Source: Escherichia coli | Lineage (GTDB): Bacteria; Pseudomonadota; Gammaproteobacteria; Enterobacterales; Enterobacteriaceae | Direction: 5' to 3' (one strand) | Assembly (NCBI RefSeq): GCF_030013205.1 | Contig: NZ_CP122648.1 | DNA length: 64,000 bases | Shown: positions 6,001-9,000 of the stretch, one piece after another | How positions within the stretch are numbered: position 1 is the stretch's first letter | Layout of the letters: each line of letters opens with the position of its first letter | Position numbers: made by a program

Positions 6001-9000
6001 GTACACAAAAATAGAGTCGATCTTTTGTCGCTCGTCCGCGAGGGAATTCAAAGGTGACGTCCAGAACCGCATTCTGTGCCGGAATATGTCGTGGAAACGC
6101 CCCTAAATAAACACCAGCAGTAATTTTGCTCACCGGCTCCAGGCGAAGGCAAACCAACGCATAGACAGCCACATCCCGATGCGCCATGGCAATGTCAGCC
6201 AGTAAACGGCGGGCGGGAGTTTCCCTTGACTATCTTTACCTGTTGTTATCGCGCCAAGCCCACCGTACCCACGGCCAATAATGAGTAGCGATAATACTGG
6301 CCAACATAACCAGACTGACCACCATAACTGAAGCATTATCATTAGCTCCATCAACACAATGCACGAGCACGCGCCTGCGACATATGGCAGTGCTATTTTG
6401 ATTCGACGTTGATCAGGTTTCTGATAATTCCAACGACGGTCTACGGGCACCATCCAGTCAATTAACATACCTACCGCCAGCCCTGTGATGACATCAATAA
6501 AATGATGCTGCCAGGTCGTCAGCGTCGAAATGGCGATGAGTAAAAACCATCCGCCGCAGACTTTACGCCACCTCACAGCCAGATGCTGACGAAAGTGACG
6601 CCAAAGTAGCCAGCAGAGAATAATATGCAGCGAAGGAGACTGGTTATAAGGCAGATCAAACAATTCAAGTTGCGAAAATAACCATCCTGTCACCCCACTC
6701 ACTTCAGGACGGATAAAACTAAACTTCAGCGGGTAGAGCAAAAAACCGCAGCAGGCCATTACCGTTGCCAGAATAAGCCGGTGGACCAGTCGGCGCTGCT
6801 CAAATGTCGAGCTACAAACGAACAGCGAAAATCCATATAAAAGATCCAGACTCCAGTAAGGAACAATAGTCCAGGGAAGAAAAGGGATCGCCGTTTCCCA
6901 ACCGAATACCTGACTGGGGATATCATGGTTGTTAAGATCCTGAGTCGCGGTGAACTGATTAAGAAATCCATAGGTGAAGAAGAAAAACGGGGCCAGCAAC
7001 AATAACCAGCCAGCTCCTTGTAGCAATACGTTCCGGTGTTCAGTTATCACGACGCACCGCCATCGAAACCGTAAAAATGCCCCACTCATCAATCCGTTGT
7101 GTGCATTTATCAAATCCGGCATCATGCACGAGCGAATCCATCTCCCCTTGAGAACGCACGCGCATTACCCACGGTTTACCATCTTTATGACTGGTTAACA
7201 CCCCGGCAATCAGCTCCAGTTGTGGGTGCCACGGCTGCCCGGTGTAGATGAGAATGCCACCCGGCTCGATGGCATTGGCAAGACCTGCGAGTGAGTTTTT
7301 TACCTGCTCATTTTCGGGATAAAGCTCATACAGGCCAGAGACAATCGCCAGCGTAGGCCGCGGAGTTAACGTGCTGAGTTCTGCCGGGTTAAACGCATCG
7401 CCATGTTCAAAACGCGCCCGACCAGACATTCCCCGTTGGGCAATCATCTCTTGCCCTTGTGCAACATTTACCTCACTGTAATCACGTAACAAAATATCGC
7501 TTACGGCAGGCTCGTTTACCAGCGCATCCAGTACATAGCGCCCATGCCCTGCGGCAATGTCAACCACGCGGACGGCTAAACCTTTGGCGTGGAGATGGGC
7601 AACGGCTTGTTTAATCAGCATTTGTAAATGGGTTTTGCGCTGGCGAATACCGCGCCAGCCAACACTGTTCAGGTAGATTTTGTCGATAAAGCGCCCGAAT
7701 GCGTTACTGCCTTGCGGTTGATTTTGATAGACATAATCCAGCGAACTGCCTGAATCAAAGCCGGTACTCATTCCGAGATGCAGGCCCGCAGAGTGCGCCC
7801 CGAACAGTTTCATCGCCTTTCGCATAAAGCGATACGCCAAATCAACCGGCGATAACGGCACGGGTCCACCAGAAAGGAGCCGCCATCGATCCGCTGATGG
7901 TCCTGTGCGGTCTTCATGCTGATAATCAAATTTTTGCGACTTGTTAGCATATAAACGGCTGATAAAGCTTTGCATTTTTTCAAATGCCTGCGCCCTGTTC
8001 TCTTCACCCAACGTGTCGTGATAAAAGCCTGGCAGCAGATGCAGCTCTTTCAGAGGACTACGTAAACGCTGATAAAAATCAATCTGCGGTTGGCGATGCA
8101 CCACATAGTCATCGCCTGATATCAGAAGTTGCGTGGGGAGCGTAATCGCCGCCGCATCGCTAACAATACGTTCAGACGTTTTATAGAGATCGAGCAAGAT
8201 ATTGACGGCAATCGCCCGTGTGATCAGCGGATCATTATTGAAACTCGCCACCCGTTGCCGATCGTGGGTCAGATAACGCCCTTTCACATAGGAATTAATA
8301 AAAAACAGACCACGCAGACGATGCCATAACGCCAGCCCAGGACGTGCCAGCGGCACATACAATTTAACCTTAAAGGCCGGAGATACCAGCACTAGTCCGC
8401 GAATAGCAGGCGCATAATCATGAACCCATGTGGCAACCATCACTGCGCCGACGCTTTGCGCGATCACAACCACCTCTTCCAGTCCGACCTGGCTGTCGCT
8501 GGCAGCAAAACGGACAAATTCATCGACATCCTGCACTGAACGCGCAAGAGACGGACTATAACCACGCGGCCCCGAAGTTTGTCCATGCCCTCGGGCATCC
8601 CAGGCATAAAAAGCAGTATCTGGCATCGCCAGTTCATCAACGAGATGTTGTAGACGCCCGGAATGTTCATGACCGCGATGAAATAAGACTATGACCTTTT
8701 TCGCCCCGGGCTGTAAAGCGGGCCAGTGCCGATAAAACAACGCTGTATTATCACTGGTGGTAAAAAAATATTCCCCAGGGATGCGTGGATTTTCCATTTT
8801 CTCTATTTTCCTTCAGTAACAGCAGTAGCGAATAAAATAAAAAAATACTGGGGCGGTGAAAATTAATGAGTCAATCCTGTCAAGGAGTCCGCCATGTCCT
8901 GGTAATAGTTTTCCGCTATCTTTAACACCAACATCTCGTTTGATGGCTGACATCACTACATCGCCGCAAAAACCACAAATACCAATTAACAAACCCGCTA

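Follow-up and report, generated by a model that had tools for sequence, protein, structure and literature searches.

A one-nucleotide deletion in ynbD of a pig-associated Escherichia coli clone is best read as an ordinary lineage-specific pseudogene

In the 64,000-nucleotide stretch of Escherichia coli DNA analysed here (the window; contig NZ_CP122648.1), the two domains of YnbD, a PAP2 membrane domain and a dual-specificity phosphatase (DSP) domain, are found in different reading frames. This locus raises the question of whether ynbD has been divided into two working proteins, is still expressed at full length by recoding, appears broken through a sequencing artefact, or has been lost. A preliminary description made from the sequence alone had proposed that a 1-nt frameshift splits the gene between the PAP2 membrane domain and the DSP domain, a proposal that both our alignments and the RefSeq annotation support. 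The relevant features are the following.

5735..7026, minus strand: ynbD pseudogene (PAP2 membrane and dual-specificity phosphatase domains), 1292 nt compared with 1293 nt when intact.
6130..7026, minus strand: upstream frame from TTG 7026 to TGA 6130-6132, 298 codons, retaining all hydrophobic segments as well as the motifs SPSLH (residue 130) and HHFID (residue 174).
5735..6229, minus strand: downstream (-1) frame with the DSP domain and its P-loop HCALGLSRS (residue 375 in intact-protein numbering).
6151..6153, minus strand: the lesion, a run of three T (T3) that has four T (T4) in intact alleles, at codons 292/293, placed there by aligning the window with two intact alleles (O170:H18 and K-12).
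6130..6133, minus strand: GTGA overlap, in which GTG 6133-6131 (V299 of the intact protein) lies on TGA 6132-6130, with GGAG 3 nt upstream.
7040..10314, minus strand: ynbC, ynbB and ynbA, the remainder of the operon, all intact as read from the sequence and the ETEC4067 annotation.

The upstream open reading frame starts at the TTG at 7026, which is also the start chosen by PGAP, and consists of 292 native residues followed by a novel tail (AFAWSR) and the TGA. On its upstream side the -1 frame that encodes the DSP domain is shut by TAG 6230-6232. Since this stop closes the DSP frame and TGA 6130-6132 ends the upstream one, the two are jointly open only across 6133-6229, and every coordinate given previously for these two frames, 1 nt apart, was confirmed. 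The earliest ATG of the DSP frame is at 6187; the reading frame that begins there stops at 5735, and no Shine-Dalgarno sequence can be read at this ATG. Restoring one T produces an open reading frame of 431 codons including the stop, which equals K-12 ynbD (1293 nt) and the intact O170:H18 allele. The expectation that a single added nucleotide would give a 431-codon frame from TTG 7026 was therefore correct, down to the length of both reference alleles.

Alignment places the lesion exactly. One T is gone from a run of four, turning CGTTGGTTTTGCC of the intact alleles into CGTTGGTTTGCC here, and this is the sole alignment gap relative to them. In codons, CGT TGG TTT TGC (R W F C) now reads CGT TGG TTT GCC. 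Slippage had previously been suspected in a C/G repeat (CCCGCCCGCC). That site is refuted, because the tract is unaltered in the alignment with intact alleles and the missing base is a T of the T4 run at 6151-6153, 60-70 nt downstream of the repeat.

The break falls between the two domains. In the repaired protein, Pfam assigns PAP2_3 to residues 74-189 (E = 2.5e-4), with a weak PAP2 match at 128-198, and DSPc to residues 306-429 (E = 6e-26), where HCALGLSRS at 375 forms the HCxxGxxR(S/T) P-loop. Reading the N-terminal part against the PAP2 consensus, we take SPSLH (130) and HHFID (174) to be the PAP2 C2 and C3 motifs. The final hydrophobic segment stops near residue 250. With the PAP2 motifs and hydrophobic segments upstream of the break and the P-loop downstream of it, the break is interdomain. 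The locus otherwise has the marks of a ynbD orthologue, namely a syntenic place at the end of ynbABCD, between ynbC and azoR, an N-terminal PAP2-type domain and a C-terminal DSPc domain, but the single frame of about 413-450 codons that should hold both domains is broken at codon 292/293, which makes it a pseudogene of the ynbD family and no functional member. NCBIfam has no dedicated YnbD model, and the DSP part reached only 94.6 bits with NF009025, below its cut-off of 505, an uninformative match. K-12 YnbD (b1411, NP_415929.1) is a 430-aa PAP2/dual-specificity phosphatase fusion and the fourth putative membrane PAP2 protein of E. coli. The repaired window protein likewise has 430 aa and the same domains, differing from it at 19 amino acids; whereas the K-12 copy is intact, the window copy lacks one T at codon 292/293, which leaves the DSP domain out of frame.

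We then asked how widely this allele is shared. The 1451-nt ynbD region is 100% identical across 18 complete genomes, with zero differences over the gene, and the matches that follow them cover 1452 nt, the intact length. All 18 come from pig or wild boar hosts, O139:H1 strains are among them, and the records looked up name Denmark, France and Belgium. In ETEC4067, CFSAN018748 and W13-16, PGAP/RefSeq annotates the exact 5735-7026 span as a ynbD pseudogene ("frameshifted"); the loci concerned (ETEC4067 QDX30_RS12965, CFSAN018748 C7A99_RS16295 and O139:H1 W13-16 KZW92_RS03255) carry the same allele in 100% identical DNA. Some GenBank submissions instead enter the halves of ynbD as two "hypothetical proteins", such as the 290-aa BDY72446.1 and the 150-aa BDY72447.1. 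The exact 150-aa product occurs on 183 public contigs and the exact 290-aa product on 174. The frameshift was thus retained when independent assemblies were consulted, in 18 identical complete genomes and on 174-183 contigs. The frameshift itself is already flagged by public annotation. Our literature search found no paper on the T3 allele or on a YnbD substrate.

To count further carriers, we used a 38-mer with the T3 run at its centre, which is unable to seed on T4 alleles. It matched 21 of 5426 complete genomes, and this number is a minimum, since an allele with a neighbouring SNP (e.g., the K-12-type R294) would escape it. These 21 comprise the 18 clone members together with XJ6.1 (bovine, China), JNEC-KY178 (human, Japan) and GMF065 (human, USA). 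The latter three share the T3 allele and the azoR/hrpA haplotype group with the pig clone and have further lesions of their own: XJ6.1 and JNEC-KY178 have also lost 1 nt at 6739 and 7 nt at 6358-6364, which wrecks the PAP2 part, and GMF065 combines the T deletion with W7* and W282* and has two private non-synonymous changes in its DSP part. The product of the GMF065 DSP frame (P0137) is found on 323 contigs. Unlike these alleles, that of the pig clone has the T deletion as its only lesion. As both other backgrounds of the deletion have gained additional disabling lesions, they look like a dead gene in decay and not like a selected two-piece design.

The deletion thus occurs on three allele backgrounds that are up to 23 substitutions apart. 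At azoR and the 5' end of hrpA, these three cluster together and apart from O170:H18 and K-12, the only two intact alleles included in this comparison; distances in the ynb genes do not follow this grouping and have a mosaic look. Together, the azoR/hrpA clustering and the mosaic ynb genes fit a single origin of the T deletion with later recombination, a history that these sequences resolve only partly; given the three backgrounds, recurrence at the T-run site could be the alternative.

Several further observations concern variation at this locus. For ynbA (9709-10314, minus strand; 606 nt), 49 nt (8%) separate the window from K-12 and 44 nt from XJ6.1, against only 20 nt for GMF065. ynbB (8813-9709, minus strand) is about 30 of 897 nt away from all others compared. 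These distances suggest that the ynb locus is a recombination mosaic whose ynbA allele is unusually divergent. Just past the P-loop, at codons 387-388 (5865-5870, minus strand), the window reads ALVVGAW where K-12 and GMF065 have VVA and O170:H18 has VAA. Among the alleles compared, G388 is restricted to the pig clone, XJ6.1 and KY178, and may therefore postdate the inactivation.

Elsewhere, an intact ynbD is the rule. A frame-preserving span (1452 or 1449 nt) was found in 56 of 57 full-length copies, which were taken as an even sample down the ranking of matches. The protein search output names orthologues from some 20 genera, chiefly of Enterobacterales but also Vibrio, and including Klebsiella, Salmonella, Citrobacter, Serratia, Pectobacterium and Yersinia; each of these orthologues is a single fusion of 413-450 aa with both domains. 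No naturally split orthologue from another genus appeared in that output, and the possibility raised in the preliminary description that orthologues might also be split at this point was not borne out. The short matches all belong to E. coli or Shigella and are contig-end fragments or independent pseudogene pieces. Among them, P0024 is frameshifted near K268, P0123 and P0138 stop near L279 and P0018 is truncated at M285; P0124 and P0127 are further independent pieces. The way in which the protein cluster was found biases these sampled fragments to PAP2-only products. Such varied independent truncations indicate that ynbD breaks occasionally in E. coli, by several routes. A number of the circulating truncations lie at residues 250-292, in the interdomain region.

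Against this background we weighed the alternatives. One is a homopolymer miscall in the source genome, and the lesion does lie within a homopolymer, the usual spot for indel errors. T4 is, however, too short for a typical error hotspot. Moreover, 21 complete genomes from separate assemblies share the very same deletion, and its exact products and the related P0137 product lie on hundreds of public contigs, which rules out sequencing error and gives a miscall next to no probability. Recoding, by programmed -1 frameshifting or transcriptional slippage within 6133-6229, would restore full-length YnbD, and a -1 shift anywhere in these 97 nt open in both frames would give a near-native protein. 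Yet no X XXY YYZ heptamer exists in the zero frame within 6133-6229, and the only two in the open reading frame (at 6886 and 6745) lie upstream of TAG 6230-6232, such that a -1 shift at either would run into that stop. No homopolymer longer than 3 is present inside the overlap, and runs as short as 3 are not known to support transcriptional slippage. Folding revealed no stable RNA structure near the site (MFE -30.6 kcal/mol versus a shuffle mean of -35.8, z = +1.57, i.e., less stable than shuffles), and Rfam gave no match around it. Because intact alleles are the norm, the lesion is derived and not a conserved recoding site; we consider recoding here extremely improbable.

A functional split deserves somewhat more attention. 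Here, a PAP2 protein would end at TGA 6130 and the DSP domain would be re-initiated at GTG 6133 by termination-reinitiation coupling. The break does lie between the Pfam domains (PAP2_3 to 189, hydrophobic to near 250, DSPc from 306), both open reading frames are otherwise undamaged in the pig clone, and the GTGA overlap with its upstream GGAG exists, its GTG being in frame with the DSP domain. A free DSP domain could conceivably be re-initiated only at this overlap, a possible and weak candidate with poor spacing: the GGAG-GTG spacer is just 3 nt, the start is a GTG and the motif is also present, by chance, in intact alleles. Moreover, in both other T-deletion backgrounds the PAP2 part carries added nonsense or frameshift lesions, the DSP part of GMF065 has its private changes, and the split arrangement is not conserved among orthologues, which are single open reading frames. 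Two working halves are accordingly unlikely. Adaptive loss, in which selection in the pig ETEC/EDEC lineage favoured inactivation of YnbD or removal of its DSP domain and the change recurred at this site, would agree with the three allele backgrounds, with the independent truncations near the interdomain region (P0024, P0123/P0138 and P0018) and with the intact ynbABC of all carriers. The azoR/hrpA clustering set against discordant ynb distances nevertheless fits one origin plus recombination, only 21 of 5426 complete genomes have the deletion, the fragment sample is biased as stated above, and loss of ynbD has no known phenotype (PMC7413402). We thus regard selection for the loss as very unlikely.

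What is known of the operon makes inactivation easy to tolerate. Gene order in the window is as in K-12, with ydbD, ynbA, ynbB, ynbC and ynbD followed by azoR (on the opposite strand) and hrpA. The intactness of ynbA, ynbB and ynbC, asserted in the preliminary description, was confirmed in the window, and these genes are undamaged in every carrier of the T deletion; its further statement that only the last step of the pathway would be affected is an assumption. No function or biochemical role has been ascribed to YnbD, which failed to complement thermosensitive C55-PP phosphatase and PGP phosphatase mutants; a K-12 ynbD deletion is viable, as is a strain without all four PAP2 genes (PMC7413402). 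YnbB is a non-essential CdsA paralogue that was examined for a part in MPIase glycolipid biosynthesis (PMC6362211), and this study is the sole published lead that we found on the ynbABCD product. Only 4597 of 5426 complete E. coli genomes hold at least 80% of ynbD, leaving about 15% without a full-length copy. In strain 18KM2445, the ydbD-ynbABCD block is entirely missing and pdxI adjoins azoR (6140-7719 of its locus), a natural deletion of the operon. paaX is truncated nearby in the same strain. Since the K-12 deletion is viable and part of E. coli lacks ynbD or the operon, loss of ynbD is most likely neutral or nearly so.

Taking together the observed lesion and its position, its inheritance, the decay of the sister alleles and the fused orthologues elsewhere, we conclude that ynbD is here very probably an ordinary lineage-specific pseudogene that arose by loss of one T, is inherited in the pig clone and is tolerated. 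The proposed course of events begins with a loss of one T in the T4 run at codon 292/293, presumably of the replication-slippage type. The ribosome would leave the frame after the lesion and terminate six codons on, and the expected product would be a 298-aa membrane protein with the PAP2 core and without the cytoplasmic DSP domain, which, in the -1 frame and lacking a usable start, would most likely not be made. The mutation is inherited and fixed in the pig-associated ETEC/oedema-disease clone, O139:H1 included, where it is tolerated because E. coli can dispense with ynbD and indeed with the ydbD-ynbABCD block as a whole. The idea that the lesion uncouples the two domains is thus right as to the interdomain position of the break; it does not hold for the production of separate working parts, as a free DSP domain has no good start and sister alleles have decayed further. 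Gene loss, rather than two working halves, is the simplest outcome.

The upstream open reading frame of the pig clone is otherwise undamaged, and given this reading frame a truncated yet active PAP2 protein is possible in that clone. A more far-reaching version, in which the T3 allele still yields a working PAP2 enzyme without the DSP domain, perhaps alongside a little free DSP domain re-initiated at the GTGA, and thereby alters the YnbABC lipid or glycolipid product in the pig-clone envelope in a manner favoured in the host, strikes us as highly unlikely. As a lineage-specific pseudogene, ynbD is of small significance, being one more of its kind in a dispensable gene. The T3 allele nonetheless marks the pig ETEC/EDEC lineage cleanly as a clone, and the natural series from intact ynbD through a DSP-less form with PAP2 intact and fully decayed alleles to absence of the operon could be used for probing the ynbABCD product.

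Two observations concern other parts of the window. Over its first 25 kb, four genomes match it equally at 100%, ETEC4067 being one of them, and identity with ETEC4067 (NZ_CP122685.1) remains 100% over positions 1-44818. The window thus belongs to the pig clone and may derive from a sister strain of ETEC4067. From 44819 to 64000 the window diverges abruptly from ETEC4067, whose genes after uspF encode a prophage tail and baseplate; the source strain appears to have a different sequence beyond 44818. Within the shared part, ompN (42885-44018, plus strand) is a pseudogene with an internal stop according to the ETEC4067 annotation, and an IS1 (41900-42597, minus strand) lies just upstream.
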